NCBI GenBank assembly: GCA_043228905.1
Contig: JBHGNT010000008.1
Coordinates: 7,750,001-7,814,000, forward strand
DNA length: 64,000 bases
Reading direction: 5' to 3'
DNA from: Azolla caroliniana
Taxonomy: Eukaryota > Plantae > Polypodiophyta
The position numbers and the translations under genes were made by a program. The notes beneath the pieces were generated by a model, which saw only the letters and a list, made by a program, of their open reading frames with translations, did not search any database and was not told where the DNA came from. Shown one piece after another: positions 4,475-57,800 of the stretch (the stretch's first letter is position 1; every line of letters begins with the position of its first letter).

Positions 4475-4776
4475 TATATATCCTCAATGAACTATATTAC
4501 TCACTCCCTTTGTTATGTACAATTCAAGCCCTTAAATAGGTAGCCTATAAGATACAAATTGATATCCATCTAGATGGTTGCATCCTTCAAGATCTGACAC
4601 TTCTATTAATAACTCTTCAAATCTAATAATATTTACAACGCTTCCTATTAACACTCAAAATTATTTATTTATTTGTCCTAGATTTCACACTTTGTCTGCC
4701 TCCGTCTTCACTCCTTCGGCTCTCCGGTTCTCCAACTTTCCGACTCTGACCCATGACAACTTCATTGGGCAACACA

Positions 4777-11454: not shown

Positions 11455-14400
11455 CAAAGCTCTTTGTAAGTTCATTATGGACATTGTTTTCTACGTTCTA
11501 TAGCTCTTGGAAAGCTCTTTTAGAGAGCTTTCTAAAGAATGTTCATTTATTGAATTCCAGTACTGTGGCGAGAAGTTATGAGCATTTTCATCCGCAACCA
11601 TCTTTGCCCCACGGTTCCTCAAACACAAGGTAGATTTTGAAGCCCTAAATCGAGTGAAAGGTACATTCTCTCTCCCTCCTTTTTTGTCTCTCTCTTCTCG
11701 TAGGGTTTGTCCCTACAATGACAAACACTCGTAAAGCTGCTGCAAAGTTCGGGGGTATGATTGATAATGAGCCGAGATCACCAACAAATCTCAATTCCAA
11801 TGCAATGGAAAAAATGCTTATGAGTCACTTTATTTCTCTTCAAGAAACTATAAACAAGCAAGGTGAAGAGATTAGGACGTTAATGAAAGAGAATGCTAAG
11901 CTCCAAATTGTTGTCATTGATAATGAAAGTCTTAAGCAAGTGGTTGCAAAACTTCAAGAAGAGATTCAAGAATGTAAAAGAGCTTCTATCGAAACAAATG
12001 AGCACCTTAACAAGATTGAGTTAAAGGAAACATTAAAAGAAGAAAAATTGGACACGATGAGGCGGAATGTAAGTGAGATGAAAAATGTATGTACAACGAA
12101 GTCATGGGCCAATGTATGTGGTGGGGATGTGGTATCAAACTCATCTAATATGCATGTGATGCATCAAGAGAAGAATATAGAAAGCATAGATGTTTGAGAA
12201 TTGAAAGAACATGAATGACGATCAAAGAACATTGCCGTCCGTGGGATTAAAGAAGAGAGTATGGAAACACCCTTATCCCTTGGAATTTTTTAGCATGCAT
12301 TATGTGATGTTAGATGTGAATGTATATGGGGCACACTGAGTTGGGAAACATGGTGTTAATTGCTCTGGAGAAAGGCCTATTGTATGCACAATGACAGATG
12401 ATACAAAGCAGCGGATCATACTCGAAAATAGTTGGGTATACCTCAAAGGTACGCAATGCTTTGTGACTGAAGATCATACTATCTCACAACAAAATGCTTG
12501 TCGTAAAGCATATGAAGAAAGATTGAAAAATAAGGTTAAGGATGTGCCTAAAGATGGAAATGTAGGCAAATACGGACACATGACCTATGAGACTAACCGA
12601 CGCCTTTTACGACTAGGATTTTGGAATTGCAATGGATACCCATGGAATGCGAGATTTGGCATAGAGGAGTTCACCAATGACTCGGATATCACACTTCTTG
12701 TTGAAACATGGGAGCATGATACTCAAAGGATTCAAGGTTTAGGAAACTATAATGTACACTCTTTGATATGGAAGAAAAATCCAAGACAAAGAAGAGGACG
12801 AGGGGTGGCATGTTTGATTAAGAAGGAAATAGAGAAATATGTGTCAATCATAAAAAATGATGAACATAAATGCTACATATGGCTCAAAATAGAAACACCT
12901 AATGATTTGCTCACTTTTGTAGTTGGATGTTACATTCCTCATCAAGATTCTAACTTTTATGCTTGTTTGGATAAAGATCAACCTTTTGTCAATCTAGAAG
13001 ATGATATTGCTTATTTCAAATCCAAAGGGGAAGTTATTGTCTTTGGTGACATGAATGCTCATACAAAAGTTTCCAACTTGATTCACAAGAATATTTCATG
13101 CCACATATCTCAAGGATGCAAGAGGATATGCAAATGTATAGCCGCTCTTCTAGCGATGAAAAAGATCTGAACCAATTTGGGAAGTTACTCCTACAAATGT
13201 GCAATTGTACCGGATTGCTTATTGCAAATGGTATTTCCTTATGGTTGGATCGTATACATAAATTCTCACTTGGTGAATGGACACCGGAATCCGATCATAG
13301 GCCTTGATCTCAAATGTATGCATAGGTTTGATTGTGAGAAGGCTATTGGAGATAATAAACAACCGCACTTGAGCATGAACCTTAAGCGAGCACCCATGTA
13401 TTCCAAGATGGTTGACGATATGGTACAAATGACAAAGATACAACATGGTGCCACACTAGAATGCAAATGGGAAGCTTTTAAGAAAGTCATTCTCTCCTGT
13501 ACAAACAAATGTTTTTCGACCAACCGTACATCTTGGAAATGCACCAAGAAACTTAGGGAAAAATGGTTTGATAAAGAATGTCGTGAAGCTCGAAAGTGCC
13601 TTATGGTTTTGGATGTAGTTAAGGATAAAGAGAATTACCAAAAGCATTTGCATGAGTATAAAAGACTTATTCAAAGAAAGAGAAGAATATAGGAAGTTAC
13701 TCAACAATTTATCCAAACGCAAGAGAAAGCACATGCATGTGCTAAATTTTGGGGAAATCTAAAGGGGAAACGTGTTGAGAGTTATGGTGACTTAACTCTT
13801 CACGACTTGTAAATGCATTGTAAGAATTTATATGAGTTATCTCTTGCCGGAAAGATGATGTGTTATGGTTCTCTTTCACATATGCCTCCCTTCTTTACAA
13901 TTGAAGATATATGCATAGGACTTAAGAAATTGGCCTCTCGAAAGGCAAGCAATCTTCAATGTATAAAGGCGGAAATGCTCAAATGGATGGGAAAGGAAGC
14001 ACATGTATGGATACACGATATGTTTAATGATGCATTGCAACATGGTATGCCGTACGATTGGACTACAAATTGGATCAAACCTTTAAATAAAGGTGGAGAT
14101 GTAAATAATGTAAACAACTATCGAACCATCATGGTTGGCTCATTAATGGCAAAACTGTTTGGATGTATAATGGAATCAAAGATAAGTGTATGGGGTGAAA
14201 AAAATGGTAAGAGAGCTTATGGACAAACTGGCTTTTGAAAACAACATAGCACCATTGATCACCTTATCACCCTTTGAGTATTAATGGAGGAAAGTCACCT
14301 TAGAGGTAAAGGTTTATATTGCTTTTTTATAGACTTCAAGAAAGCTTTTGATATGGTACCTTGTGAGCATCTTTGGAGGTGAATGGAAGAACTTGAGATG

Positions 14401-15940
14401 CCAAGTGAATATATGCTTGCAATTTCCCGAATTTATGAGAAGGTTATGTGTTGTGTGTGCATGAGAGATAAACTTTCAGATTTTTTCAAAAGCACTATTG
14501 GTGTTAAGCAAGGATGCCCACTCTCACCAACACTATTTGGTCTATGCATTGATGAATTGGAAGAAATGGTTACCAAGTTTGCAAAGGAAGAATGTGTTGA
14601 AGAAGTTGCCATTGGGAATGTTGTGATTATACTTTTGCTATATGCAGATGACGTAGTGCTTTTTGCAAATACTTTAGGAGATGCACAAAAGGTTATGAAG
14701 GCATTGGAAAAAGTTTGCATGCATACTGAATTAAGTGTCAATAGCTCTAAAACAAAGATTATGCTTGTGAAGAGCCAAAAAAGAGATAAACCATGCATTA
14801 TGTACAACAATGAGCAGGCACTTGAATGTGTGGAAAGCTTCAAATATCTTGGCCTTGAAGTTCTTTCAAATCATAAATGGAATGAATGTGCTACACGCCG
14901 TTTAGAGGCGGGTAAGCGAGCACACTATGCATTTGAGAACACATGCAATCTTGGAGATATTAAGTGTTGGTTCCTCGAGAAATATCTTTTCGACACTTTG
15001 GTGACACCGGTTCTTCTGTATGGGGTGGAAGTATGGGGCGGTAGCATCCCTAAATCTATGTGGAAAAAGTTTGAAAATGTCCAAAAACATTTTCTTACAA
15101 TGTTTCTACAAGTTAAGAAACAAACACCCTACACCCTCCTCCTTGAGATAGGATCACTTCCCATTGAGATCATGGCCATGGAAAGGGTTGTTGAATACAT
15201 GCTTAAGGTTCAAAAAAGTCCCTCACATCGACTTCCTAGAATTGCGTGGGAAGCAAGCAAAAAGATCCAAAAGACGCATAAAAGCAAAATTTTGTGTTCC
15301 AGTTGGATGCAAGATATAGAAAAATGGTTTGGTAGATTGGATGCGAGACACTTGCTTCATTATGCATCATTAGATTCCTCTATAAATGAGGCCTTTTTGC
15401 AACGCCAATGTATCATGACATGGGACAAATGTGGAGGCTCACGCTTCACACATTATACTACACATGTTGCACCTAACTACAAAACCATATTTTTTGTGGA
15501 ACGGGGAAATCGTACACATCGATACATGTTAGAGCCCATACCATTATTTGCCATTCGAACCATTGCTTCCATGCGACTTAGCTCACATGCATTGCGATGT
15601 GAGGCAGGTTGTTGGGCACAAGTGATGAGAGTGGTCGGCTATGCACACTTTGCCCTAAACAAGTTCGCGAGTCTGAGTATCACACTTTGATACAATGCTC
15701 TGCCTTTGATCATATTCGACCATGCTTTCCACATCTCTTCGACCGAGCTCAATCCTTGCATGAATTCCTCTCACAACCACAATGTGCACTCTTGATTGCA
15801 ACATTCATTGGTAAAGTTCTAGAACATCGAGAGTCACTACTCACTTTCACATGTATCACATGAAATGTAATATTTTTGGTCTCATAGGTCATATTTGACC
15901 TCCGAAGATGATAATATAATCTCTCTCTGTCTCTCTCTCT
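11455..15940 (+). mobile_element. Near full-length degenerate LINE (ORF1 + APE endonuclease-RT-zinc finger), inserted in the (CT)n of the chromovirus 3' LTR
   Basis: ORF1-like coiled coil 11718-12197; EN motifs GFWNCNG, LLVETW, VFGDMNA; RT motifs GVKQGCPLSPTLF, LLYADD; C-terminal RLCTLC...EYHTLIQC; ends in (CT)n. Confidence 0.9.
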
Positions 15941-18798: not shown

Positions 18799-19646
18799 TG
18801 TTGACCATACGGTCGTGACAAGGAGTGCGGAATGGTAGATCATGTCGAATATGAGTGTATAATGGCCGTATTCACACTGTCCCTTTGGACAACCCAAGTT
18901 TGGGTTATTTCTGTAAATAGCATAAAGGGCAATTGCCCTAGGATAGTCACTATATAAAGTGACTTTGTAACCTTTAGTGGAGGTTGGTGGTCATTTGTAA
19001 CAGTTGCTATTAAGAAATAAAACGTTTCTGTTTGCCTATCTCTCTCTCTCTTGTTTATTCTCATACACAGGTTCTTCAACATCATAGATGTTGTTTGTTC
19101 TTCTGCACTGATGACCTTGTCCCCAACATTTGGTATCAGAGCATTGGAGGTTCTTCAACCCGCTGCCGGCCGTCATAGTACACCACACAACATTTTGTTT
19201 CTGTTTTTTCTTGAAGTACAAAGAAGAGAGAAGACAAACAAGAAGTCAACATCTTACTGTGTTAAATCACTAATTGGAGTAAGCTAGCCGACTGTACTCT
19301 GTTTCTGTGATTGTAACCACCTGAGATTGGTCTCCAAGCAACAACCAAATTTGTGCTTCATTCGACTGATCGACATTTGGGAGGATCATTTGGATCTGTC
19401 TCTCTTATCACTGCAATCATCCGAAGTAGAATTGGCCTAAACAATCGGTTTCTTGTGATCGGTATTCGGCATACAATCAGAAGCTAACCGAAGTCACTCC
19501 AAGAAGGTTCAACAAACAAGTATTCGAAACCAAACCGACTTGGGTTCAAGACCGACTAAAACAATATCGGGTGAGCCGACCGGCTGCACCCCACTAAGGT
19601 TCCTAGTCAACTCCGAACAGAGTCTTATCAACCGAAACCGAATAAG

Positions 19647-21642
19647 ATGGCATCAACATCCGGCTCATCGGAGATGAGTCTAAGGAGGTTCAATGGTTTG
19701 AATTTCAACTTCTGGAAGGAACAAATGCAGGACTATCTCATAGTGAAGGATCGGATAGACCCGATTGAGAATGAAAATCCTCCAGAAGCATAAAAGGCAA
19801 ATGAGTGGCTAAAGCTGGACAGTATCGTCCACGCCACAATTTGGATGCACTTGTCGGAGTCAGTGTACTTCATAGTGCAATCATGCTCGACAACTTTTGA
19901 ACTTTGGAAAACACTATCGGAAACTTATGAAAAGAAGGTCGCCGCAACGAGGATGTATCTGATCCGGCGCCTCTACAACTTGCGGATAAAAGAATCTGAT
20001 TTGGTTCAGGCACACCTCAACGAGTACCAAAGCCTAAGCTCCCAAATATCTTCTTAGGGAATGACAATAGAGGATGAACTCAGAGCAATGATACTCATGA
20101 GTAGTCTCCCCTCTTCTTGGGAAACTTTCGTCACAACCGTGTGCAATGCTTCAACAACTGCCATTAAGTACCCTAAAATCACGAGCATAATCCTGATTGA
20201 AGCAACTCGGAGAAAGTCTTTTGCCAAAGACTCGGCAGATGAAGCTTACGTAGTACAAGATTCGACCGACCAATCAAACAACCGGGGAAGTAGTTCTTCC
20301 CGACCGCCGAACAATCAACGAAGTCGGAGCAAGTCCCGGGACAACCGAATTTGCAACTACTGCAAGAAACCGAGACACATCAAAGCTGACTGTCGGGCAC
20401 TCAAAGAAAAAACTGACAAAGCTCAGAGAGCGGATCAGAAGAGTAGCCGACATGAGGAGGTCAACTACGTCGGCTCGTTAGCCGAAATTTGAATGACCGA
20501 CCCGAACATACTGTCCATAGAGAACCCAGTTGAATCAAAAGTTCTGCTTACGACTGAGGAATCGAGCACATGGCTCCTCGACTCGGGCGCATTGTACCAT
20601 GTGACACCTCGCCGATCTTAGTTTCGGCAATACTCGGACTGGCACTCCGACTCAGTTCGAGTCAGGAACTCGCAACACTGTGCCATAATCGGACTCGGCA
20701 CCGTAGATCTCAACCTTCCGGGTGGCTCTACACTCGTACTACACAATGTCCAACACGTTCCTGAGCTTTCAAGACCCTTGATCTTAGTCAGACAACTTGA
20801 CAAAGCCGACATCTGTGCCGGGTTCTCATCAGGAGGGTGGACACTCCACGAAGGGAACCACCTGCTTGCTCGAGGACCAAAGGTACACTCTTTGTACCCT
20901 TTATATGTCACACTCAAAGAGGGTGACTTATTTTTGGTCGATATCCCCGTGTCATCATTATGGCACGGAAGACTTGGACACCTCAGCAAGGCCGGCATAA
21001 TGCACCTATCCAGAGCTAGTTACATCCCCAAGCTCTCCTTCCCGAATCACCAATTCTGCGAGCATTGCTAGTACGGCAAATAGGTAACCATTTCACACCC
21101 GACATCAACACCAAGAGAATCGAGTCCCCTCGATTTGGTCCACTCGAAGGTCTATGGCCCGATGCCACATCAGTCTCTCGGTGGTGCTTCGTACTTCGTC
21201 AATTTTATTGACAACTCGACTCGGAAGGTGTGGGCTTACCCCATTAGAACCAAAGATCGGGTGTTCTCGATCTTCTTTGAATGGCTTGCAATGGTCGAAA
21301 ACAAGACCGATCGAAAACTAAAATGTCTCCGAACCGATAATGGAGGAGAATTCAAGTCTGACGAATTCGTCAAATTTTGTCGGGAATGCGACATTTGATG
21401 TGAATATACGGCACCCTATAGTCTGGAGCAGAACGGAATTGTTGAATGCATGAATCAAACGATTCAAGAACGCATAGTATCCATGCTCCAACACTCCGGA
21501 CTATTGGATGGCTTCTGGGCGGAGGTTCTAGTTACGTTAGTACACATAATAAATATGTCGCCAAGTAGACCTCTAAGACTTAAAATACCTCAGGAAACAT
21601 GGACCGGCAGTAAGCCGAATTATGACAGGCTGAGGATCTTCG
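19647..21642 (+). pseudogene. Copia gag-PR-integrase
   Basis: ORF fragments 19845-21665 with in-frame stops. Confidence 0.9.
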
Positions 21643-24600
21643 TGATTGCGAGAAAGTGCTTCTAAAGTTAGAAGATGTGCACCTAACACTTTCCGGGGAG
21701 AAATCGGCATTCAGGCAAGAAGAAATATTGGTAGTCGGACATCTATGTGGGCCCTATGGCTGAAGACCGTCACCAACCAAGATCGATACGATTCAAGCTA
21801 TGAAAGAAGTATGTGAGTCACAATCCGAAGTCTGAAGGTTTCTTGGAGCATGTGCATTCTATCACATATGGATTCCGCACTATGCACATATTGCGGACCC
21901 ACTCTATCACTTGTTGCGGAAGGGTAAGAAGTTCGAATGGAAATCGAAGCATACCAAAGCCATGAAGAAGCTCAAGAAATCACTACGGAGGGCAAAAGCA
22001 CTAAAGAAGCCGAACTAGGACCGACCGATCATAGTAATGGTTGACACAAGTCCAACTGGAATCAGATGGGTCATCAATCAAGCCGACTCGGATGGTTCGC
22101 GATATCCGATCCGATTTGGAGCAAAGGTTCTCAACGAAAGGCAACGCGGATATGCACAAGTCAAAAGAGAATTATGGGGAGTTGTGTCGGCAATCAAATC
22201 GGATCGAGATTATTTGGTTGGAGCCGAAGTAGTGATCGAAATGGATTGTCTTCTGATACTCGGGATGATGCGGTGTTGCACGATACCAGATGTGGCTATG
22301 CTAAGGTGGATTGCATATGTTAAGTCACTTAATCCGGAGGTACGACACATCTCTGGAAAAGACAATGCGGTAGCGGATATGCTATCAAGGGTGTGGTTCA
22401 GAGATGACATAACCGAATCCAATAATGAAGAAGTTTCCGAAGACTACTTTGCTTCGGAGCACATATGCCGGGTGAACGTAATCCAATAATTCCGGGAAGA
22501 AGAATACGAGGGAGAAAGCTTGTTGATCAGGAAAGTGCTACAAGAAATCAAGGAATCATCGGATAATAAAGAGAAGAGAGTCGAGATCCGAAGTAAGAAG
22601 CGGCAAGTCCGAAAGTTCTTGAAAAATGGATTAATATGGAGGGAGCCGAAAAGATCGGATGGCATACCACTTCGGGTAGTCGGAACGAAAGAGCAACGAA
22701 ACCGGATAATGTCCGAGTTTCACGAGTCCGATTGGGCTGGACATCGAGGAACATGGGCAACTTTTGTGAAAATCAAACAAAAATATTGGCGGAAGAATAT
22801 GTACAAAGATATAGCGAAGTTCACGGAAAGCTGTGAGAAGTGCCAAATCTACTCCGAAGTTCGACACCGAGATGAGTTGCATCCGACATTCTCACCGACA
22901 ATCAACTTCAAATGGATGGCCGACATTGTAGCCATGCCAACCGGGATCGAACAAAAGAAGTACTTGGTGTTAGCTCGGGAAGATCTCACAAACCAAGTAG
23001 AAGGTCAGGCACTATGGAGGAAAACGTCTTCTGTGGTATGCCAATTTCTTTTGGAAGAAGTGTTTTGCAGGTATGCGTGCGTAGGACAAGTGATTGCGGA
23101 TTGGGGGGAACTTGACTCTCATAAAGCTAGGGAATTCTTCACCAAACCTGGAGTTTGGTTAACACTAACAACGACATACAATCTGGAGGCCAACGGGAAA
23201 ATCGAACGAGGACATAGTCCGATCGTCAAAGCACTTGCCAAAGCATGCGACGGAAGGGTGAAGGATTGGCCGCAAATGCTCCCGTATGCACTATGGGCGG
23301 ATCGGACGACGCATAGCTCTGTAACCAGTTATATGCCGGCCAAACTCATGACCGGACAAGCACTGATAATGCCAACGGAAACCACGATCGCGACATGGAC
23401 AATGTTATCGTGGAAGGAAGAGATGAGCCGGGAAGAACTACTAGTGGTCTGGATACGACAACTAGAGGGAAGACCGGAAGACATAGCGGAAGCAACACGC
23501 CGACAACAAGAAGCACGATTCCGGAACAGAAGCTGGTTTGACACAAAGCACCGACTACGACCATGGAAGATTGAAGAAGGAGATTGGGTGATTGTCTATG
23601 ATAATAGTTTGGATCATCAACATACAACAATACAGAAGTTCGCTAAAAGGTGGTTCGGGCCATACGAGGTTCGGAAAGTTTTCGACAACGGAACTTACCG
23701 ACTATGCAAGTTGGATGGAACAATACTACGGGTGCCTATAGCGGGGAAACGGGTGAAGATTTTCAAGAAGCGAACTGACAAAGAACCTTATGTAAGCTTA
23801 GACAAGACCGACAACGAGGAGCAATTGGACAAAGATCGCGGTGATGCGGAAAGTGAAGAAAGTGGTCTTCAATTGATAATCGACATACGGGAAGAATCGG
23901 AGAGTGCTACGGATGAAGAGGAACAACGAGCACCGGGAACTTCGGCACATACCGAAGGATGTGTGGGTTTGGGGGGGGGGGGGCGAGTGTCGTAGTGTAA
24001 TTCGCACACTACATGAAAATTACATTTTTGTCCCTCCGGATGGAATCGGTAAGGAGAACCGGTAAGAACCGGATCAAGTAGAATCGGCAAGAGTGGATAA
24101 AGAAGGTCGGTGAGAGTCTCACTGGATAAAGAGACAAATTTGTAAATAGAAGAAAAAAATTGTTACATGCATAGGGCAGGATTCAAACCCTGTACCTCCA
24201 TGTTAACAAATTTTAAGCCTTACCACTATACTAGCATATTATGAATTTTAAAGTTATACTAAACTTTATTCCATGTAAATATTCTAGATATGCATGGTAC
24301 AAAAAGTTATTCATGCATACACACTCGAATTAAAAAGAAAAAGATGGGATAGAAAGCTAATCATGCACATGCAATGGGTTGAAAACTAAAGTTAGTAAAA
24401 GCATGATGCTTGCATGTGATAAACTTAGACTCTTCCAACACTATATAAGGAAGAGAGGAAGATGTATAGGGGTTGTTGATTTTTTTTAGAAGGATTAATT
24501 AATACAAAATATTCGTGGGATTCACGATTTTACCATCTAATTCTCTCTTACAATCTAATTACCCATTAATACATTATACTCGTGGGATTCACGAGTTTCA

Positions 24601-24724
24601 TATCTTCTTCTTACAATCTCTTCCTAACTAACATTATCTCATATTCTTCTTTCTCCTAGTCCAAAACCCCAGCGGTTCCCACCCGACTCACACAAACGAT
24701 CCGGCGCCGAAAGGCACTACAACA
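21643..24724 (+). mobile_element. 5'-deleted Gypsy (RT end-RNaseH-integrase-3' LTR), relative of 52026-59086
   Basis: DCEKVL, VDTSPTGI..., YAQVKRELWG, HESDWAGHRG/CEKC, WFGPY; G-run PPT; LTR TGTCGTAGTG...CACTACAACA at 23988-24724. Confidence 0.92.
24170..24236 (-). promoter_or_regulatory. tRNA-like A/B boxes in Gypsy LTR U3
   Basis: Minus strand TAGTATAGTGGTAAGGC (24233 leftwards) and GGTTTGAATCC (24189-24179; GGTTCGAATCC before CpG decay), 44 nt apart. A T7 run lies ~20 nt downstream. Confidence 0.7.
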
Positions 24725-25931
24725 GTGATCTACAGGATGAAATCTATATGCAGCAGCCGAAAGGCTTTGTGGCATTCGGCCGGGAACATCTAGTCTGCCG
24801 ACTCAGGAAGAGTTTATACGGCCTGAAACAGGCAGCCCGATAGTGGTACAAGAAGTTCGACGACTTCATCCAATCGGTCGGCCTCTCCAAGAGCGATGAG
24901 GACCACTGTCTCTTCACCAAAACAACTCAAGACGGGTCTCCCGGCTTCCTCATCATTTACGTGGCCGACATGCTACTCTTCGGCCGACATGTCGGAGAGC
25001 TCACCAAACTCGTTCGGAAATTGCGGTTGAAGTTTGCCATGAAGGACCTCGGTCCGGCAAGACACATACTTGGTATGAAGATTAGTCGGCATCGCGATAA
25101 ACGATAACTTTTCTTGTCTCAAACCGACTACATCGGATGTGTCTTGGAACGCTTCAACATGCACTCGACCAAGTCTACTTCGACCCCACTCGCCATTAAC
25201 CTTCATCTGTCTCAGCGAGACTGCCTGATATCCGGTCCGAATGGGGAAGATATGAAGTCGGTACCGTATGCACAGACAATAGGCTCCCTTATGTACGCGA
25301 TGGTCGCGACACAACCTGATATTTCTCACCCGAAGGAGTTGTCAACAGATTCATGCAGAACCCAGGCCGATCGCACTGGAACGCAGTCAAGCATGTGTTT
25401 AGATATCTAGCTAGCACAAAAGAGCACGACATTCTTTTTGGCCCGAACTCAACCTTAGGCGTAGTCGGTTACACTGACTCGGACTTCGCCGGTTGCGTGG
25501 ACAGTCGAAAACCAACAACCGGATATTGTTTCAAATTCGGCAATGGAGCAATCTCATGGAAGTCGAAACTACAGGAGTGCATAGCCACCTCAATGACCAA
25601 AGCGGAATATGTAGCTGCGTCCGACGCGACAAAAGAAGCTTTATGGCTCGATCGGCTGGCGCACACGTTTTGACAAGTCGACTTCGACTCGGCTCCAATT
25701 GTCTACAGCAACAGTCACGGTGTTGTTGCTTTGTCAAAAAATCCGGTTCAACGCAATGCCTCCAAGCATATCGACGTTCGATATCACTTTGTTCGGAACT
25801 GTGTCATTTCAGGGAAAATCGGTCTTGAGAACATATCCACAACTGATAATGTCGCAGATGGAATGACCAAGTGTCTTTCGGCGGACCGCTTCTGGTCCCT
25901 TCAGCACCAGATGGGCGTAACGAAAAATTAG
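24725..25931 (+). pseudogene. Copia RT-RNaseH
   Basis: [47 protein letters not shown]. Confidence 0.92.
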
Positions 25932-26329
25932 TCCGGTTAAAGTCGGACACACAACACAGGATGGTTTCGGACAACCGACATCGGTTCTTTGAGGATCGGC
26001 TTCAGCTCTTCCGACCCGACCAGTTCGGTTCTTTGTCTTCAGATCTTGCCGACTCGAACAAAACCGATCTGTCCAATAAACCTTGTATATACCTATAATT
26101 TCAGATAACCCATGTATACACCCACGGGGGAGTGTCGAATACGAGTGTATAATGGCCATATTCACACTGTCCATTTGGACAACCCAAGTTTGGGCTATTT
26201 CTGTAAATAGCATAAAGGGGCAGTTGCCCTAGGATAGTCACTATATAAAGTGACTTTGTAACCTTTAGTGGAGGTTGGTGGTCATTTGTAACTGTTGCTA
26301 TTAAGAAATAAAACGTTTCTGCATGCCTA

Positions 26330-26360
<31 letters not shown>

Positions 26361-26689
26361 TATTCTCATACACAACTCCTTCAACATCACAGATGTTGTT
26401 TGTTCTTCTGCACTGACGACCTTGTCCCCAACAAATCATCGGTGGGTAGACCCTAGATGTAAGAGAGGTTTAGGGGTTTAGGAGGGGTGTAGGGTTTAGG
26501 GTTGATGACCTTGCAGTCGTAACAAGGAGTGTGGAATGGTGGATCATCGGCAGGTAGAGGTGCGCGAATAGGAAAACCAAGCTCGATTTGAGCACACCTG
26601 AATCGAAGATGAGGTAGAGGAAGGGAAGAGGGAGATGACATGATTAGGAATAGGGGGTTAGATAAAAGAGGGGGGTAAAGGGAGGGATT

Positions 26690-26983
26690 TAACATACTAA
26701 TTAAAAATAAAGTGCAAGAGAGAGAGGGGGAGGAAAGGAGGGAGATTAATACATAATTAAGCCTAGGATTAAAAATAAAAAAAATGAGATTGAAGATATA
26801 ATTAAAATTTAAAAACGAGGCGTAAGGGGAGGGGAGAGGATTAACATACTAAGCCTAAACATAAACACTAATGGAAATGATTAACACATAAAACATAATA
26901 AGAAAAAAAGAACATAATCCAAAAACTAAAACATAATCATAAATCTAGAAACATAAACCTAAAAACAAGGTAAGGGGAGAGTA

Positions 26984-27050
<67 letters not shown>

Positions 27051-27173
27051 CAGCATAATTAAGTCTAAGATTAAAACTAAAAACGAGATTAAAAATATAG
27101 TTAAAAATTTAAAAGAGGGATAAGGGGAGACGAGGGGATTAACATCCTAATTAGAAACAAGATTAAAACCTAA

Positions 27174-27220
<47 letters not shown>

Positions 27221-27400
27221 AAACATAATTAAGTGTAAGATTAAAACTAAAAACGAGATTAAAAACATAGTTAAAAATTAAAAAGAGGGGTAAGGGGAGA
27301 CGAGGGGATTAACATCCTAATTAAAAACAATATTAAAACCTAATTAAAAAGGGGGGGGGGGAGAGAGAGAGAGAGAAACATAATTAAAATATGTAATTAT
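26690..27400. repeat. About four copies of a ~170 bp A-rich unit separated by (GA)n
   Basis: 27048-27180 and 27217-27350 are near-identical (CATAATTAAGT.TAAGATTAAAACTAAAAACGAGATT...GGGGAGACGAGGGGATTAACATCCTAATT). Confidence 0.85.
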
Positions 27401-27436
27401 CATTAGAAAAAATTACATGGGTAGGGGGGTTGGGGG

Positions 27437-27503
27437 TCATGGTCTAATGCTACTGACAAACTAGTTTCGCCCCTAAGGGCTCATCAGTGCCATAAGACCA
27501 TGA
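27437..27503 (-). ncRNA. Minimal type I hammerhead ribozyme
   Basis: UCAUGGUCU-UA-UGGCA CUGAUGA GCCC UUAG GGGC GAAA CUAG UU/UGUCA-GUAGCAUU-AGACCAUGA: full catalytic core, stem II GCCC/GGGC, palindromic stem III AACUAGUU, GUU cleavage triplet, stem I UGGCA/UGUCA plus a 9 bp distal stem. Confidence 0.88.
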
Positions 27504-28361
27504 GTGGATTTGAGGGGGTTTATATAGGGTTTAGGAGGGAGGGGTAAGGTGGATGGTAGAGAGGGTTCAAATTAGGGAGTGGGGGGTGAGAGGGTGCTAT
27601 GTGCACATGTGCCCTTAAGAAAGGAAAGGGTAGTGGGTTTTAATGTGGTAAGGGTGTATAAGAAAAGGAAAAGGGAATGGTGATAAGGGCAGTGGTAATG
27701 TGTGCAAAAAGGTTGAGAGGGAAAGGATTAGGCACAGGGAGAGAGAGAGAGAGAGAGAGAAAAGGTCGGGTGGTAAGGTAAAAAGGTAAAGCTAGGGGGA
27801 GGGGTTGAGGTGTAGATAGGGAGGGGTATAAGGAGAGTTAGGTAAAATGGAAGAGGGGTAGAGGTGTAAATAGGGAAAATTAGAGGGGTAGAGTAAAAAA
27901 GGTTAAAGGTGGGAGGGGGTGGAGGTAAAAGTGAGGGAGGGGTAGAGGTATGATAATAAGAAAAAAGAAAAAGGAAGGTGAGGGTTTAAAGGGGTAGGAG
28001 GGAATTTAAACAAAGGTAAGGGGAAGGGTAGGGTGGTAATTTAGGAAAAGTGAGGGCAAGGGTAGGGTGGTAATTTTGAAAAGTAGAGGGAGGGGTAGGA
28101 GGGTAATTTGGGAAAGTAATGGGAGGGGTAGGAGGGTAGTTTTAGGAAAGTAAAGAGGGGGTAGAGTTTTGAAAAGATACAAAATGCCGGCTACTAAAAA
28201 TGTAGTTCCGAGCACATCTTACAAACGGGAAAAAAAGGAGGGGAACTAAAATAAAACATTACACGGCTACATTAAGTAGTCCCGTGTTTAACAAAAGAGA
28301 GGTGTATGAGGGGATGTCGGGGAGCGATGCGTATGAGGGGGATGTCGAGAAGCGAGAGAAA

Positions 28362-28415
28362 GACCACTTAACACTGATGAGCCCCATATGGGGTGAAACT
28401 TGTTTGCTCGTGGCC
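28362..28415 (+). ncRNA. Second, partly decayed minimal type I hammerhead ribozyme
   Basis: GACCAC-UUAACA CUGAUGA GCCCC AUAU GGGGU GAAA CUUG UU/UGCUC GUGGCC: core intact, stem I and stem III palindrome imperfect. Confidence 0.72.
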
Positions 28416-28471
28416 ATTCCCATTTCCCCTATCTCATTGTAAACTCTATCTTAATGAAGATTAGTTTTGTT

Positions 28472-28517
<46 letters not shown>

Positions 28518-28886
28518 CTCATGGGTATGTTTTAATCTTATTTAGTGTTTTATTGTTATGTAGAGTTTTAGTTTTAGTATTTTGATCCCTCTTCTCCCTC
28601 TCCCCTCCCTCTACCTCTTCTAATCGTCGCCTACACCAAGCTTTGTCTACGATGCGGGTGCACTCAAATCGATCTTGGTGGTCTCGTCTCCCTCTCGACT
28701 TATCTACAACCCACCAATGATTTCCCCGTTCTGCACTCCTTGTACCGGCCGTAAGGTCAACAAAAACTCACATGCCATGAGTTTTGTGGACATGCTCCGT
28801 ATTGCTATTGAGAGAGGACATGCTCCATATTTGAGTGGTGTATTGGCCCACACTCCTTGTTGGCCGTAAGGCACTAATGCTAAAAA

Positions 28887-29858
28887 GGACCGCACATCGT
28901 TGGTCACGCCCGTTCGTGTTCCAATTCTATGCATGGTTGCTCACGTCCATCCGTGTTTAGTTCTTGGTGAGGGCCACATGGTCGCGTACGCTCGTTCGTG
29001 TTCTAGTTCTCGGTGAAGGCCGCATGGTCTCTCACGCCCGTTCGTGTTTTCGATGAGGATCGCACATGGTCGCACACGTTCCAGTTCTCGATGAGGGCCA
29101 CACATGGTCACTCACTCCCGTTCGTGTTCCAGTCTCCAGTGAGGACTGCACATGATCGCTCACTCCTGCTATTGTTCGTGTTCCAGATCCCGGCAAGGAC
29201 CGACATGGTCGCTCATGCCCGCTATTGTTCATGTTCCAGTTCCCGGTGAGGACCACGCATGGTCGCTCACGCCTGTTGGTGTTTGTGTCCCAACTCTCGA
29301 TGAGGACCGACATGGTCTCTCATGTCTGTTGGTGTTCGTGTTTCCAGTGAGGACAACACATGGTTTCACACACTCACCACTTCCCGTTCACCCCTACACC
29401 GTGCTTTCGAAAAGGCAGCCGTAAAGGGGAGGATAATGTCAGAGACAAGACAACAGTTATGTGAAGATTTGAACTCTTGAACTCTTGTATTATAGTCAAG
29501 TGTTATATTGTAACCAACACATTCAAGTACATAATCATGTTGTATATCTTCATAGATTATCTATTCACGTTCTAGGAGTTTTTGGAAAGTTTTAGAACTA
29601 GAAGGTTCTAGAGGGTTCTAGAATATTCTCCAAAATATTCTCAAGAATATTCTAATGGATGTACTTCAACTCACAATATAAATACATGTAATCTCCTTGG
29701 TCCCTTTCAAGGGATTCAACACCAATCATTGACACATCAATCTAGTATTCTCGTTTCGCCTCATCTTTGTCTCCTTCATCTTTATCTCTGTCTTCATTCC
29801 CTCATGTCACTCACAACATCTAGAGTTCCTAGCTTCATCACGTCTAGCTCCAAGTTCA
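28887..29858 (+). mobile_element. Second copy of tandem-repeat 3' UTR + PPT + LTR (LTR from 29437)
   Basis: Colinear with ~18030-18798 and extends further; right end approximate. Confidence 0.8.
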
Positions 29859-51551: not shown

Positions 51552-52698
51552 GGTGTTGTCCGCCGAAATAGTAACCGACAGACAAGAGCGTAGGAATAAG
51601 AAATAATATAAGATCATAACGCATGTAACGGTTCACGCAAGAAGCATGAACGGCTAAATAGACCCTGATAGCTACGGCTAATCTATTGTGTGTTTGGAAT
51701 ACCTAAGCATGTAAGAACGTGAGTGTAACCATTGCTAAGGAGTCAGTTGTAGTTGTCTCCCTTATACGCTAATAGGTTACGGGGAACATTCCCCTATGCA
51801 TTACACATAGACGCCCCATTCATTGTTCCCCAATCATTTGGAGGTCTAGGTCGAAGGATTGACCGCAGACCATGTTCCTAATCGGTAATAGAGAACGGGA
51901 ATCCGGATGTGGATCGGCGATCGCCGGCGTTTCCGGCCCAATCAGTATCGGTGTAGCCAACTAACTGTGCAGCAATATCGGTCTGATATAGTAGCCCCCA
52001 GTCTTTAGTGCCACTGATGTACCGGTGTCGTGAAGAAAACCGCCCACAAGAGGAATCGGAGGAACAAGGCGTGGGAAACGGCTCTACACACACGCGCGCC
52101 AAGAAGTACATACGAGGATCCTAGGTGGGTAGATTCGGTTGGTATGCAGTTAATGCCAAACGGCCTCTTGACGGGATATAAAAAGGAAGAGGAAGAATAG
52201 GAAAAGATATCTCGCGGGGGGAGAGGACGAAGTGCTGCCGAACCGATTTCGGAGCTCCTCTCTCACTCCTGCTTTCTCTGTCTTCTGCTCCATCGCGTAC
52301 CTGTGCAGGTTTCGAGGAGGCTTGCGCTGTTCCGTGGAACGCCCCGAGTGCGTCCTGCAGCACCTCCGACCTGTTTCCCTTTCTGTGCGTCGCAACATAC
52401 AGGGGTCGGCATCTGTTCGCCGCCCCGTTCGTTTTCGTTAGTATCCATTCCGTGCCCCGCCGTGGGTTGTAATTCTTTGGTCTGTTATTTTCTTGCATTC
52501 ATAACATATCTTTCGTTGTTGCGTCCATCTGCGTCGGCGTTTGTTTGTGATCTCCGTTTGTTGGGCCGTGTCCCTGTGCAATCTTCGGTTCTGTGTAATC
52601 GGGTCTCTCTCTTACTCCGCTCTCTCTTGCTCTTTGGTCCAAGACCCCCGTGGTCCCTCCTCCTTTCTGCACGCAAGGGCGTAGCAACCCCGACATCT

Positions 52699-52716
52699 TG
52701 GTGAACCCGACGTGAA
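52699..52716 (+). promoter_or_regulatory. Primer-binding site for tRNA-Trp
   Basis: TGGTGAACCCGACGTGAA is complementary to the plant cytosolic tRNA-Trp 3' end (TTCACGTCGGGTTCACCA, recalled from memory). Confidence 0.85.
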
Positions 52717-52738
52717 AGAGGCGGCAGAAGAGCAGGAA

Positions 52739-54865
52739 ATGAGGGGGTCGGATCTCGCAGAGGCCATGGCTTCGGCCGTGGATCGGATTGTAAACGCGCG
52801 CGAGAGCACCGGTGCCCTCGACAGAGCTATTGAGGCGGTCGTCGGCACGATCGGCCGGTTCGATGGGAAAGATGCCACGAAGTATTTGGCGTCCTACGGT
52901 GCAGAGATGCTGATGCGGGACATTCCGGAAGAAAGGCGTCTTGCCGGATTTCCCCGAGTAGCGATGCCGAGCATCCATGCGGAGGTGCTCGAGGTGCGGA
53001 CGGAGAGCCGTACCTGGGAGGAGTTCGAAGGTCGGCTCCTAGAGAAATACGGGCTGGACGACGCGCTCCGGCTTTCGAAGCGAAGGTTCATGGAATGGGT
53101 GGAGTCCCCGGGGAAGGGAAGAAACGCGTCGGCGCTCCTCCGGGAGTTCGAGGAAAACTTTGCGCGCCTTTCGGCGCTCGACCGAACCATCCTGGACACG
53201 AGCCGGGTCTTGCTGTTTGTCAAGTCGGTCGACGAGCGGGATCGGGAGCAAGTGGGCTTCTTGCTGGAGACCGAAGACGGGCTCACTACCGACTGGGCGG
53301 CTGTCAGGAAGGTCTGTGGCCGTTTCGACAAACGGCGAGAATGGGCGGATAACGGGGCGACCGGGTCGGGCTCGGTCGCAGCAAGGAAGCTCGAACCAGC
53401 GCCGCAGGTGCGCAAGGAAGAGACCCGGGAGTGGTTGGAAACCGGTTCGGCTTCGACCGGCGTAGTCAGAGGCTCAACCGGAGGAGAGGCGCTGGAGGAA
53501 TTGACGAAGGCGATAAAGGACCTCCAAATCGCGCAGGCCCGAAGGAAAGGAGGCGAACCGGCTCGTGACCGACGGCCGGCGGCAGGAAACAGGTGCATGT
53601 GGTGCGATGAAGTCGGCCACATTCGGAAGGACTGCGGCGACTTCGCGGAGGCGCTGAGGAACAGGGTGGTGTACCTGTGGGAAGGACGGGTGCATGCCAG
53701 CGACACCCGAAGGGCCCTGAGCCGAAACGACGGAAAGGGTGGTATGAAAAGGGTGATGGAAGAGGCGGCGGCCCGACACGCGGAAACAGTCCACTACTCG
53801 GCGTCAGCCGGCATTCGAGTCGGGGGCGGCGAGGCCCGGGGGGAAAGCAAAGCCGGATTCTGGCCGACGATGCTGGAAGGCCTTGCCGGTGCAGGGCTTA
53901 AAAGGGAGGAATCGGACCGTGCGGAGAAACGGGTACGGGAGATGACCGGGTGGAGCGACCCGGTCGAGGAAAAGACGGGCTTCGTGGAAGCCGCTTGCAG
54001 GAACTACGAGGCTCTGGTAGAAGAGAAGCGGGTGGGGAAACCCGGGACGACCGGGCCCTCACAACGATACGAGACCCGGTCCGGGCCACGACGGGACGAA
54101 GCCGGCGGGGCCGGTACGCGAGATAAACCCCAGAAGGGCGGGTATCGTCTGGGGACGGAGATAGAAAGAACCACGGACTTACGAAAGGTCCTGGAGGAAC
54201 GGATCCTCGACAGCAAGGTGGAGCTGTCGTTACGAGAGGTGCTGGGAATCGCCAAGAAGGAGTTCCACGACTCCATCGTGGACTTGGTGAAACGGAAGAG
54301 GCTGTCGACGGAGACAGAACCGGAAAGACCGGTGGAAGTGCGGACGACGCACCTAGACGACATGGCTCTGGGAGACGAGTGGGCGGAAAGCCACTATTCG
54401 AGACCACATTGGGCCCGAGCGACCACGGAAACCCCGGTGAAGATCGGCGATGTCCAGGAACCGGTGGTAGCTTTAGTAGACCACGGATCGGAGATCAATT
54501 TGATGTCCATGGACTTCTATAAGAAGGGCAAATGGCCGATCAACACCAAGCACGGGTGGAAAATAAGGGCAGCAACGCGCGCCACCGAGGAACTGCACGG
54601 GGCCTGTCCGAACGTGCGAGTCAAGATCGGCGACGTTGAGATTGACCAGCACTTCTTCGTGCAGGAGACGTCTTCGCATCCGGTCATTCTGGGAGAGCCG
54701 TACATCACGGCGGCGCGAATGGAGACCAAGGTGCTGGACAACGGTTCAGCCTATGCGCGGGTCAAGAGCCAGGACGGGCGCCATTCGGTCCAGTTTTTGA
54801 CGGTCAGGCCGAACCACGAGCGTAACCGCGACTCCCTCGGTTCCGATAACCGAGAGGATTTTTAG
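52739..54865 (+). CDS. gag: Gag-protease polyprotein
   Basis: Open frame from ATG 52739; CMWCDEVGHIRKDC knuckle; aspartic protease ALVDHGSEIN...VILGEPY. Confidence 0.93.
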   Translation: MRGSDLAEAMASAVDRIVNARESTGALDRAIEAVVGTIGRFDGKDATKYLASYGAEMLMRDIPEERRLAGFPRVAMPSIHAEVLEVRTESRTWEEFEGRLLEKYGLDDALRLSKRRFMEWVESPGKGRNASALLREFEENFARLSALDRTILDTSRVLLFVKSVDERDREQVGFLLETEDGLTTDWAAVRKVCGRFDKRREWADNGATGSGSVAARKLEPAPQVRKEETREWLETGSASTGVVRGSTGGEALEELTKAIKDLQIAQARRKGGEPARDRRPAAGNRCMWCDEVGHIRKDCGDFAEALRNRVVYLWEGRVHASDTRRALSRNDGKGGMKRVMEEAAARHAETVHYSASAGIRVGGGEARGESKAGFWPTMLEGLAGAGLKREESDRAEKRVREMTGWSDPVEEKTGFVEAACRNYEALVEEKRVGKPGTTGPSQRYETRSGPRRDEAGGAGTRDKPQKGGYRLGTEIERTTDLRKVLEERILDSKVELSLREVLGIAKKEFHDSIVDLVKRKRLSTETEPERPVEVRTTHLDDMALGDEWAESHYSRPHWARATTETPVKIGDVQEPVVALVDHGSEINLMSMDFYKKGKWPINTKHGWKIRAATRATEELHGACPNVRVKIGDVEIDQHFFVQETSSHPVILGEPYITAARMETKVLDNGSAYARVKSQDGRHSVQFLTVRPNHERNRDSLGSDNREDF

Positions 54866-57800
54866 AGAGGACTGCCAAGGCGTGGGGCCGCGACAGTCCG
54901 GATGCTCCGGGAAAACCCCACATTTGTACGATAAAACCGTGTACGACAGGTAGGGTATTTTGCTTCTCCGACAGCGGAGCGTGTACGATAGTCGGCATCG
55001 GCGGCCGAGAGAAGACAAAGGCGGAGGGGAGACTTCGAGCGTGCGGAGTTCTCGGCCCTGACGAGGAAATCAACGGAGCCGTGGAGGCGGTTTCATTCGA
55101 CGACACCTTGGGAATGCTGGGAAAGGTAGTCGAAGAAGGCCTTAACGAAGACCGGACGATACCGGTGTGTTCCGAGGAGATGTACGGAGTCATCGCGGAC
55201 TTCGGTCGAGGGCTCGAGTCAGTTCGGACGGCCCGCGTAGGCACCAAGTACAAGACTGTGGACCGGAAGGTAAGGCCAGTCGCGGCACCCTTACCGGAGG
55301 ACAGCGCGTCGAGAATCAAAGGGGTTGCATCGGACCCTAGTCTACGGGATCCGGCCTGCATAGGGCACACCTTCACCGACGAGACGCTCCGAGAGCTCAA
55401 AATAGGTGGGGGCGGGTTCCTACTGCCTGCGGAGGAAGACCGGTTTCGGAGAATGCTCGGAAGGCACGGGAAAGCCTTCGCATTCTCGCCGGAGGAAATC
55501 GGGTGCGTTGACCCGACGATCGTGGAGCCGATGGTGATATTCACGGTACCGCATGTACCATGGAATCTCAAGCCAATCCCGGTTCCGAGAGCTCACATCC
55601 CGAAGTTGATGGAGCTGCTGAGGCAGAAAGTTGATATGGGAATTCTCGAGCCGTCGAGCGCCCCATATTCGAATCGATGGTTCACCGTACCGAAGAAAAA
55701 CGGTTCGTTGCGCTTCATCCAGGACCTGCAGCCGGTCAATCGAGTGACCATTCGGAACGCAGGGATCGGACCGACCATAGGCGAGTTCGCGGAGGCCTTC
55801 GCCGGAAGGTCAATTTACTCGGTCGGGGATCTATACTCAGGGTACGACCAGTTCCAGCTAGCCGTGGAGAGCAGAGACATTACGACGATGCGAACTCCCC
55901 TCGGCCTAGTTCGGATGTGTACACTGCCGCAAGGAGGGACCAACTCGGTGGCCCACATGGTGAATGCGATGAACAAGGTTCTGAGGGACTGTATCCCGGA
56001 CATCACCATGCCGTTTCTGGACGACATTCCGATCAAAGGATGCCCGGTGGAAGAAAGGGACGAGACGATCGGGCCGGACGGATGCCGGCGATTCGTAGCG
56101 ACGCACATCGACGACTGCGAGAAGGTGCTGCAAAGGCTAGAGGATGCGAGACTCACCTTCTCCGGGGAGAAGTCGGCCTTCGGGCAGTCAGAAATCATGG
56201 TGGTCGGACACCTGTGCGGACCATATGGCCGGAAACCGTCTCCGGCAAAGGTAGAAGCCATCTCCGCGATGAAGCCCGACTGCAGCTCGGTCACGGAAGT
56301 ACGGAGATTCCTGGGGGCATGCGCGTTCTACCACATATGGATCCCGCATTACGCACACGTCGCGGAGCCACTGTACGGGTTGCTGAAAAAGGGGCGAAGG
56401 TTCGAATGGCTGGACGAGCACGCGGAATCGGTCCGGAAGCTGAAAGAGGCCCTCGCAGCGGCACCGGCACTCCGGAAGGCGGTATACGGGAAGGGTACCC
56501 CGGTATTCATAACGGTGGATACCAGTCCGACCGGGATCGGATGGGTCGTGAACCAGGAAGACGAGGACGGCGATCGGTTTCCGATCCGATTCGGCGCGAA
56601 AGTCCTCAGTGAACGGCAGCGAGGATACGCCCAGGTTAAACGCGAACTCTGGGGTATTGTTTCGGCGGTTAAGGCCGACAAAGACTACCTGATAGGGACA
56701 GAAGTGATCATCGAGACGGATTGCCTGCCGATTCTCGGTATGGTTTCCGGATGCGCGACTCCGGACCTGGCGATGCTCAGGTGGATAGCGTACATCAAGT
56801 CCCTGGACCCGGAAATACGACACATTTCCGGGAAAGACAACGCCATGGCCGACATGCTTTCGAGGGCGAGGTTCGACGACGAGGGCGGCATGGTTTCGGA
56901 AGACGAAGAAGTCGGCGTGGATTTCTTCGAGACGGCACACATAACGACCGACGGGATGAGCACTCCGGCGCTTAACGAGTTCGACGCGAGCAAGTACGAC
57001 GGGGAGTGGCTGCAGATCGGCGGGTTTTTGAAGGCAATGACGCCCGATGCGTCATGGACGAAGGACGAGGCCAACCGGATCCGGAAGAAAGCATACCGAT
57101 TCTTTCTCCGAGATGGGCATTTGTGGAAGCACCCGAAGAAGAGGAACGGCGTCCCGCTCCGGGTGGTGGCGATGAAGGAAGAACAGGAGGAGCTACTGGC
57201 GGCCCACCACGACAGCCCTTGGGCTGGACACCGTGGAACGTGGGCGACATTTGAGAAGCTGAAGGGGAAGTACTGGTGGCCGGGATTGTACCGGGACGTG
57301 CATCGGTTCGTGTCAACTTGCGAGAGTTGTCAGATGCACTCGATAGTCCGACACCGGGACGGGCTTCGCCCTACGTACCCTCCGACTATCCACTTCAAAT
57401 GGATGGTAGATCTGGTAACGATGCCAATGGGGGTAGGACAGATGCGGTATCTGGTCCTAGCGCGGGAAGACCTGACGAACCAGGTGGAAGGCCGAGCCCT
57501 TCAGAACAAGACGACCGCGGCCGTGTGTCGGTTCCTAATCGAGGACGTGATATGTCGGTACGGGTGCGTCGGGAAGATCGTGGCTGACCGAGGGGAGTTG
57601 GACGCCGAAGAAGCCGCGGAGCTGTTCGACCGGCTGGGGGTCAAGCTCTCGCTCACCACTGCGTACAATCCGGAGGCGAATGGAAAGGTGGAGCGCGGAC
57701 ACGGACCGATCGTCAAGGCGTTGGTTCGGGCATGCGGAGGCCGAATCGGTGACTGGCCGCGGCTCCTACCTTATGCCTTGTGGGCAGACCGGACCACGCA

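Follow-up and report, generated by a model that had tools for sequence, protein, structure and literature searches.

A hammerhead ribozyme in gene-less derivatives of endonuclease-lacking Penelope-like elements of Azolla caroliniana and the genomic copy ends at its predicted cleavage site

The stretch of DNA analysed here, called the window below, comprises 64,000 nt of the Azolla caroliniana genome (assembly GCA_043228905.1, contig JBHGNT010000008.1, positions 7,750,001-7,814,000, forward strand). It contains a type I hammerhead ribozyme in an element of subfamily A, a gene-less derivative of Penelope-like elements (PLEs) that lack an endonuclease (EN). On the basis of sequence comparisons across the genome, we consider it fairly probable that the ribozyme belongs to the terminal repeat of such a derivative, that the RNA of the family undergoes cleavage at the GUU site in living cells, and that the reverse transcriptase (RT) writes RNA onto free DNA ends at interstitial breaks. 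In four families, genomic copies end at the scissile bond, which is indirect evidence that cut RNA was made and reverse-transcribed in vivo. Both the class of the ribozyme and the kind of element are known, and the motif alone is ordinary for this class. The present analysis adds the footprint at the cut site, the interstitial positions of the elements together with one telomere-capped copy, the mixed head-to-head pairs and the flanking duplications.

The ribozyme and its conservation

The ribozyme in the window consists of the following features.

27503-27437, minus strand: type I hammerhead ribozyme (subfamily A) with the core starting at 27487 and the cut predicted between 27459 and 27458
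27467-27458, minus strand: 10-nt palindrome AAACUAGUUU replacing a stable stem III, with the loop TA in 53, AT in 3 and TT in 2 of 58 sequences

The core contains, in this order, CUGAUGA, the 4-bp stem II GCCC/GGGC and the segment GAAAC-UA-GUU. Stem I is composed of a proximal helix of 4 bp (GGCA/UGUC, with one G-U pair), an internal loop and a distal helix of 9 bp. The succession of CUGAnGA, GAAA and NUH and the open stem I assign the motif to type I. An earlier reading of the window, made from the sequence only, had described the same core and stems and had placed the cut at the same scissile bond. It had also recognised the self-complementarity at stem III, the length of which is 10 nt and not 8. 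The ribozyme had been called a minimal type I; the type is right, but it is the canonical form that has a helix II of 4 bp, a short helix III and a palindromic loop (PMC4209133; this and the other articles are cited for the accessible parts of their text). The palindrome is kept in 56 of the 58 loops, the flanking letters having belonged to the search pattern, and the duplex formed by it has a predicted energy of -8.4 kcal/mol.

Conserved copies are present elsewhere in the genome: the core pattern gave 239 exact genome matches, and the reversed-pattern control gave none. Across 17 family representatives the pairing is kept in 169 of 170 cells. The third pair of stem II is C-G in nine of them and U-A in eight, the distal helix occurs as GGUC/GACC and as GACC/GGUC, and one family swaps the loop UA to AU, whereby the palindrome is preserved. 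Covariation was found in stems I and II; the sequences are related, hence the events are not independent. From this sequence evidence the ribozyme in the window is confirmed as a real hammerhead. The suggested Rfam check with Hammerhead_1 failed to identify it: the scan returned Hammerhead_3 alone, with 24.7 bits and an E-value of 0.74, under the gathering score of 48.5 bits. Position 7 of the core is variable, and AUT5 has CUGAAGA (L122 at 4372, minus strand; L121 at 6402, plus strand).

The copy in the window is itself probably inactive, according to folding predictions. It has UGUC where its relatives have UGCC, and its predicted minimum free energy fold hides CUGAUGA (pairing 0.95 versus 0.27-0.62 in six relatives; -30.6 versus -19.4 kcal/mol). 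The fold score of this copy, z -4.9, is no evidence for the active fold, because the score belongs to the inactive fold that buries the core. The earlier proposal of a self-cleaving retroelement RNA is supported for the family by the copy ends described below. Its extension to the window copy is doubtful, because the insertion is old and solitary, its ribozyme is predicted to misfold, and the same strand carries no second ribozyme.

Genomic copies ending at the predicted cut

The 5′ end of a copy was defined as the point where the similarity to its family stops upstream, and duplicated flanks were counted once. Searches with the first bases after the cut found 31, 57, 13 and 89 places, a few of which share a key in the list, and 170 distinct sites were obtained after identical flanks had been merged. 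Ends at positions -2 to +1 relative to the cut were found at 5 of 29 sites in family B, 3 of 43 in AUT1, 5 of 35 in G and 1 of 39 in D. These 14 ends compare with 17 in the interval -60 to -3 (14/31, P = 2e-9 under a uniform model). With a second mapping method, 13 ends were at the cut and 9 in the interval -29 to -3 (13/22, P = 4e-7). Patterns adjacent to the cut are blind to ends located further downstream, and the search was therefore repeated with motifs shifted downstream by about 20 nt. A hand tally of the resulting sets gave nine ends at the cut, six at +2 to +21 and eight at -60 to -3 (P = 7e-7). Ends are about 7 times as dense at the cut as just downstream of it and about 16 times as dense as upstream of it. 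At locus L295, two families are joined head to head, each at its own cut.

As many related copies start at the predicted cut, the motif is likely to be active in vivo, and the sequences point to GUU as the likely site of this cut in the RNA of the family. The footprint is formed by four families (B, AUT1, G and D), none of which is the subfamily of the window copy. No report of a genomic footprint of PLE ribozyme cleavage was found in the literature searched, which lacked most subscription papers. Most copies continue through the ribozyme. The cut linear RNA would therefore be a minority template, and an uncut read-through or re-ligated template is needed for the other copies. Ends may also accumulate at -52 to -31, near the presumed start site, but this signal is weak (11/18, P = 0.04). 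A pile at -62 to -66 in family G was dropped as an artefact of the reference used.

The pile at the GUU site might also be produced by stalling of the RT at RNA structure or by joining at short homologies, with the ribozyme carried unused. The six ends at +2 to +21 and the absence of cut-site ends in A (0 of 5 sites), A2 (0 of 8) and C (0 of 11) fit this explanation, and the ribozyme of an animal PLE is described as dispensable in vitro (PMC11167929). A stalled RT would, however, be expected to leave ends where stem I has its 3′ foot, at about +15 to +22, and not at the position where the density of ends is highest. Moreover, the register of the ends is common to four families with different stem I sequences. 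The conservation of the core and of the palindrome, with compensation, speaks against an unused ribozyme. We regard stalling or joining as quite improbable and cleavage by the ribozyme as the better explanation of the ends.

Autonomous elements and their gene-less derivatives

A genome search with a fragment of a PLE open reading frame (ORF) yielded 277 candidates, of which 150 were scored and all 150 matched. There are at least 150 RT matches, many with intact frames of 660-680 aa. Autonomous units are arranged in tandem, head to tail, with lengths of 4.67, 5.58 and 6.12 kb and one ribozyme per unit. Each unit comprises the TATA-like box, the ribozyme, a leader, a hairpin, ORF1 (745-881 aa from stop to stop), the overlapping RT frame and a C-rich trailer. 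The RT has a DKN motif and the catalytic YIDD, and the units are tandem or partially tandem, carry the ribozyme in a pseudo-long terminal repeat (pLTR) and have inverted 5′-truncated neighbours, all of which identify them as PLEs. The RT terminates after the thumb, where three GIY-YIG-bearing relatives run on, and no GIY-YIG or other endonuclease was found in the autonomous element, as in EN-minus PLEs. A genome search for GIY-YIG gave one match among nine candidates (G000:C8:2591793-2591927, L464), and no RT frame is present in the surrounding 1.1 kb read. This match resembles an exon of what is presumably a cellular SLX1-type gene.

The named relatives of the RT are from Cryptomeria, Selaginella and Ginkgo, with 38-42% identity. 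With respect to the non-seed plant supposed in the sequence-only reading, the evidence consists of these land-plant RT relatives and of TTTAGGG telomeres. In a FastTree tree of 68 rows, which holds one Selaginella RT and no named Coprina, Athena or PLE-X references, the RTs of these three plants and the Azolla RT form one clade (SH-like support 100). The AUT1 RT had no match in Pfam or PDB sequence searches, and RVT_1 was under the Pfam cut-off in three of four other RTs. For ORF1, there was no Pfam family above the cut-off and no usable Atlas match, and only two close homologs were found; its N-terminus was modelled as all helices with low confidence (pLDDT 51). In all four families checked (L113 at 4746-4758, minus strand; L117; L119; L124), the end of ORF1 contains CCA AAA AAC (A-AAA-AAC) and the RT frame is open at -1, which resembles a slippery site for a -1 frameshift. 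The ORF1 of L113, L117 and L119 contains long NPNP and proline-rich tracts from CCCTAA-like repeats (11-36 per unit).

The genomic 3′ ends of AUT1 lie 1-20 nt past the hairpin in 24 of 27 cases, and the other three continue in tandem. The position of the ends just past the hairpin matches the internal initiation described for an animal PLE (PMC11167929). The element end is found 170-1030 nt past the cut, at this separate hairpin. CCCTAA is present between the cut and the hairpin in four of ten families.

The motif CACUCCUUGU with its hairpin is common to all autonomous and ORF-less families compared. The ORF-less families, including A, retain the first ORF1 codons behind the hairpin; in subfamily A the remnant was seen in L060 and L146. 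The shared hairpin and ORF1-start codons therefore suggest that the ORF-less families are derived by internal deletion from a co-resident PLE. Of 153 candidate relatives of subfamily A, 40 were scored and all 40 matched; one relative adjoins the PLE-type ORF fragment that was used in the genome search above. The window copy shares the TATA-like box, the ribozyme and the hairpin with the autonomous element. Among the loci read, no autonomous unit had an A-type ribozyme. Loci L161-L162 (G000:C5:3884992-3893192) contain eight tandem 1059-bp units, which consist of a B fragment starting about 4 nt after the cut and about 236 bp of other DNA and have no intact ribozyme. At locus L065 (5356-9393, G000:C4), the 3′ 450-490 bp of subfamily A are repeated about seven times, head to tail.

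The window copy has no ORF, and the genome contains tandem units of about 2.1-2.5 kb that likewise lack ORFs, as would be found for a stand-alone retrozyme or a viroid-like circular RNA that is moved by long terminal repeat (LTR) elements or is unrelated to PLE genes. Plant LTR retrozymes have type III ribozymes in LTRs with a primer-binding site and a polypurine tract, whereas the ribozyme here is of type I, and neither paired LTRs nor a 4-5-bp duplication surround the element. The PLE hairpin and the ORF1-start codons are kept, and several loci show the sequence joined to fragments of PLE ORFs. A retrozyme origin is thus extremely improbable. The sequence-only reading had already preferred a PLE hammerhead to an LTR retrozyme, and the autonomous PLEs with the same ribozyme in this genome bear this out.

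Interstitial positions and insertion structure

Of the 150 scored RT matches, 117 are located on 22 large scaffolds, with a median distance of 5.3 Mb from the scaffold ends, and 33 are on unplaced contigs. One match is within 50 kb of a scaffold end (0.5 expected under uniformity) and 10 are within 1 Mb (10.8 expected). The elements are not restricted to chromosome ends, in which they depart from EN-minus PLEs. Telomere arrays (TTTAGGG/CCCTAAA) were found at 3 of 17 scaffold ends read, and at one of these three, the start of C7, the array abuts a 5′-truncated copy. Telomere attachment is the exception for these elements. Several other scaffold ends finish in one shared satellite.

Attachment at telomeres only, followed by an inward shift through fusions, rearrangements or assembly errors, would account for the copy at this one telomere-bearing end, for the matches on unplaced contigs and for the 7-10 CCCTAA between cut and hairpin in three families. 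It does not account for the six families without CCCTAA in this region. Near-identical young copies (95-100%) are found megabases inside many scaffolds, within other transposons, and some of them have 100% identical flanking duplications. A telomere-only route is for these reasons very improbable, and insertion at interstitial breaks is preferred.

Flanking duplications were assessed for outer ends within stretches of 6-10 kb. Seven of 67 ends had no far side, which left 60. At nine of these, an adjacent direct repeat leads from the 3′ end up to the 5′ boundary, compared with 0 of 60 in the reverse-strand control. The nine duplications measure 57, 111, 119, 126, 133, 290, 435, ~640 and ~660 bp, with 91-100% identity. 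One end in a tandem array and seven with non-adjacent repeats were set aside. Further candidates have about 60, 613 and 1377 bp. Duplications of more than 126 bp have been regarded as exceptional and attributed to a LINE with two endonucleases (PMC9977147), and some of the duplications found here exceed this length. Long duplications or EN-minus copies at interstitial sites may have been described before. A paper title in the reference list of PMC8316200 connects tandem duplications in plants with single-strand breaks that lie next to each other.

In an automatic map of all loci, the labels of which are rough, 43 of 281 5′ ends are within 22 head-to-head junctions. Different families are joined at 14 of the 22, including the window locus. 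Mixed pairs of this kind would require two RNA templates. At L115 (2863-2885; G000:C4, ~8702870), three TTTAGGG are present between the duplicated target and a 5′-truncated end and are absent from the reference units; telomerase possibly acted first on the break at this locus.

The same element and ribozyme might also obtain the 3′-OH from the endonuclease of another retroelement in trans, for example a LINE with an apurinic endonuclease (APE), with two distant nicks giving long duplications. LINE-like fragments in the window (12340-15690, plus strand) encode an APE-type endonuclease domain (Exo_endo_phos) and RT domains, and in the LINE Dualen duplications with a median of 900 bp have been ascribed to two endonucleases (PMC9977147). 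An endonuclease acting in trans is nevertheless at odds with the absence of a fixed short duplication at the other insertions, and the telomere-capped copy and the TTTAGGG at one internal junction indicate free ends. We consider a nuclease supplied in trans unlikely and free ends at breaks the more plausible source of the primer.

Proposed mechanism

We propose that RNA polymerase II would start about 40 nt before the cut and read through tandem units. Two ribozymes would pair through the palindrome and then cut. The RT, probably made as an ORF1-RT fusion by a -1 frameshift, would bind the hairpin and start just 3′ of it on a 3′-OH made by something else. It would then reach the 5′ end of the RNA, formed by the cut or, in uncut RNA, by the cap, or else pass through an uncut or re-ligated ribozyme. 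Different RNAs might serve as templates at the two ends of a break, with the cDNAs joined by microhomology, and widely staggered break ends would give rise to the flanking duplication. At the window locus, one break end would have received A, and the other the short third fragment followed by C.

Several observations weigh against this reading, in addition to the families without cut-site ends, the tail of ends downstream of the cut and the many copies that continue through the ribozyme. Locus L295 supplies two of the 14 cut-site ends, the ends at -1 and -2 may be chance matches of T, and the end at L399, which has a 4-nt microhomology, could be a deletion. For the window copy, ViennaRNA predicts the active dimer at -44.2, far above misfolds at -70.8. 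At the insertions, 43 of the 60 outer ends have no flanking repeat, the eight ends set aside not being counted among them, and the labels of the head-to-head junctions are no more precise than the automatic map. The flanking repeat at the window locus is a dispersed sequence of an LTR family, and two paralogs may look the same. The APE-type domain in the window leaves a trans-supplied nuclease conceivable. For Poseidon PAc of Anolis, the ribozyme is described as dispensable in vitro, with no RNA-seq reads ending at the cut (PMC11167929).

A wider proposal can be put forward more tentatively. The telomerase-related, nuclease-free RTs of land plants might be a general machine for patching breaks, which would use ribozyme-cut and uncut RNAs of several families, prime on both ends of widely staggered breaks, join the products head to head and leave tandem duplications of 50-1400 bp. 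The genome would then preserve, like a fossil record, the traces of in vivo cleavage by hammerheads. The intact, near-identical RT genes and the short template RNAs make the role of the ribozyme and the route of insertion testable.

Comparison with known elements

The closest described elements are the EN-minus PLEs of Selaginella moellendorffii (Coprina Sm1/Sm2), which have canonical type I hammerheads (PMC4209133, PMC13159263). In common with them, the Azolla elements have a type I ribozyme in the pLTR, an RT without GIY-YIG and one telomere-capped copy, and their RT is 38% identical to a Selaginella protein of the same clade. Coprina is described as telomere-associated, whereas the elements here are mostly interstitial, with two overlapping ORFs, a conserved A-AAA-AAC and many ORF-less derivatives. 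A telomere array abutting a 5′-truncated copy is known for EN-minus PLEs (PMC6431247, PMC13159263). Nuclease-free PLEs are generally described as bound to chromosome ends; in Azolla, young intact copies are spread through the arms. This interstitial location and the apparently preserved evidence of cleavage in vivo are the departures from EN-minus PLEs as described.

As in PAc, reverse transcription would start at an internal site of the RNA, close to a stem-loop where the pLTR meets the ORF, the genomic ends marking the starts, and both DNA strands would be extendable (PMC11167929). PAc differs in its GIY-YIG endonuclease and in the reported lack of reads at the cut, while genomic 5′ ends mark the cut in Azolla. 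The rotifer Athena elements and Terminons resemble the Azolla elements in having no endonuclease, an extra ORF of coiled-coil type, head-to-tail arrays and telomere-capped 5′-truncated copies (PMC6431247, PMC8557442). Their ribozyme directly precedes reverse-complement telomere repeats at the 3′ end, in contrast to the separate hairpin described above. The PLE-X elements (Chlamys subclade; Chara, spike mosses) likewise have no identified endonuclease and canonical ribozymes, are genome-wide in Chara, and their insertion route is stated as open (PMC8557442). Their proteins carry a CxC motif and an N-terminal extension (PMC8557442), neither of which is visible in the RTs studied here. Retrozymes, of the plant LTR type with type III and the animal non-LTR type with type I ribozymes, are also non-autonomous, ribozyme-bearing and tandem (PMC11722881, PMC5680766). 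The ORF-less units of Azolla differ from them in their length of 2-2.5 kb and in being traceable as deletion derivatives of a co-resident PLE. In the accessible literature, the role of the ribozyme in PLEs is called unclear and inverted neighbours are known (PMC8557442), self-scission of PLEs has been proposed without in vivo evidence (PMC4209133), and dimer cleavage of hammerheads has been reviewed (PMC6765202).

Architecture of the window locus

Besides the ribozyme, the locus contains the following features.

26434-28362, minus strand: ORF-less PLE derivative of subfamily A, with a C-rich upstream part, TATA-like box, ribozyme, AT/CT-rich leader and inner hairpin
27519-27526, minus strand: TATA-like box, which precedes the cut by about 68 nt and is common to autonomous and non-autonomous families
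26507-26531, minus strand: inner copy of the conserved CACUCCUUGU..GAC(C/U)-N4-GGUC motif, followed by two CCCTAAA (26501, 26475)
18799-18842, minus strand: detached final 44 nt of element A, holding the terminal hairpin (18827-18803)
18843-26433, plus strand: copia-type LTR element that splits element A (LTRs 18843-19128 and 26133-26433, 95.5% identical over 286 columns)
28359-28362: AAAG, a 4-nt microhomology where A and C meet head to head
28359-28770, plus strand: 5′-truncated copy of subfamily C, starting 46 nt before its own cut, with the terminal hairpin at 28734-28758
28359-28425, plus strand: second hammerhead, in the C copy, core at 28374 and predicted cut after 28404
28800-28885, plus strand: short 3′ end (85 bp) of a third family, which carries a hairpin of the same type at 28851-28874 and has matches in L077, L089 and L421
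18012-18798, plus strand: left copy of a direct repeat of about 790 bp, ending at the outer end of A
28896-29666, plus strand: right copy of this repeat, beginning just past the third fragment

Element A is an ORF-less repeat of 1.9 kb, and its TATA-like box is a putative promoter. The copia-type element is flanked by the 5-bp duplication GATCA/AATCA and was inserted later than element A. The second hammerhead had been overlooked in the sequence-only reading, which described a single ribozyme in the region; its loop UU disrupts the palindrome. A single two-way element with divergent ribozymes was considered and rejected, as A and C are separate subfamilies that are found apart. The two copies of the flanking repeat are 93.2% alike over 769 columns. 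From its sequence, this repeat is possibly a long target duplication, with which its age is compatible. Elsewhere in the window, a Gypsy-type element is found on the plus strand (54850-58344 and 52685-54865), with an open pol frame of 1164 aa and a DUF4100 domain. Its repeats (52026-52695 and 58417-59086) are 100% identical, which indicates a recent insertion.
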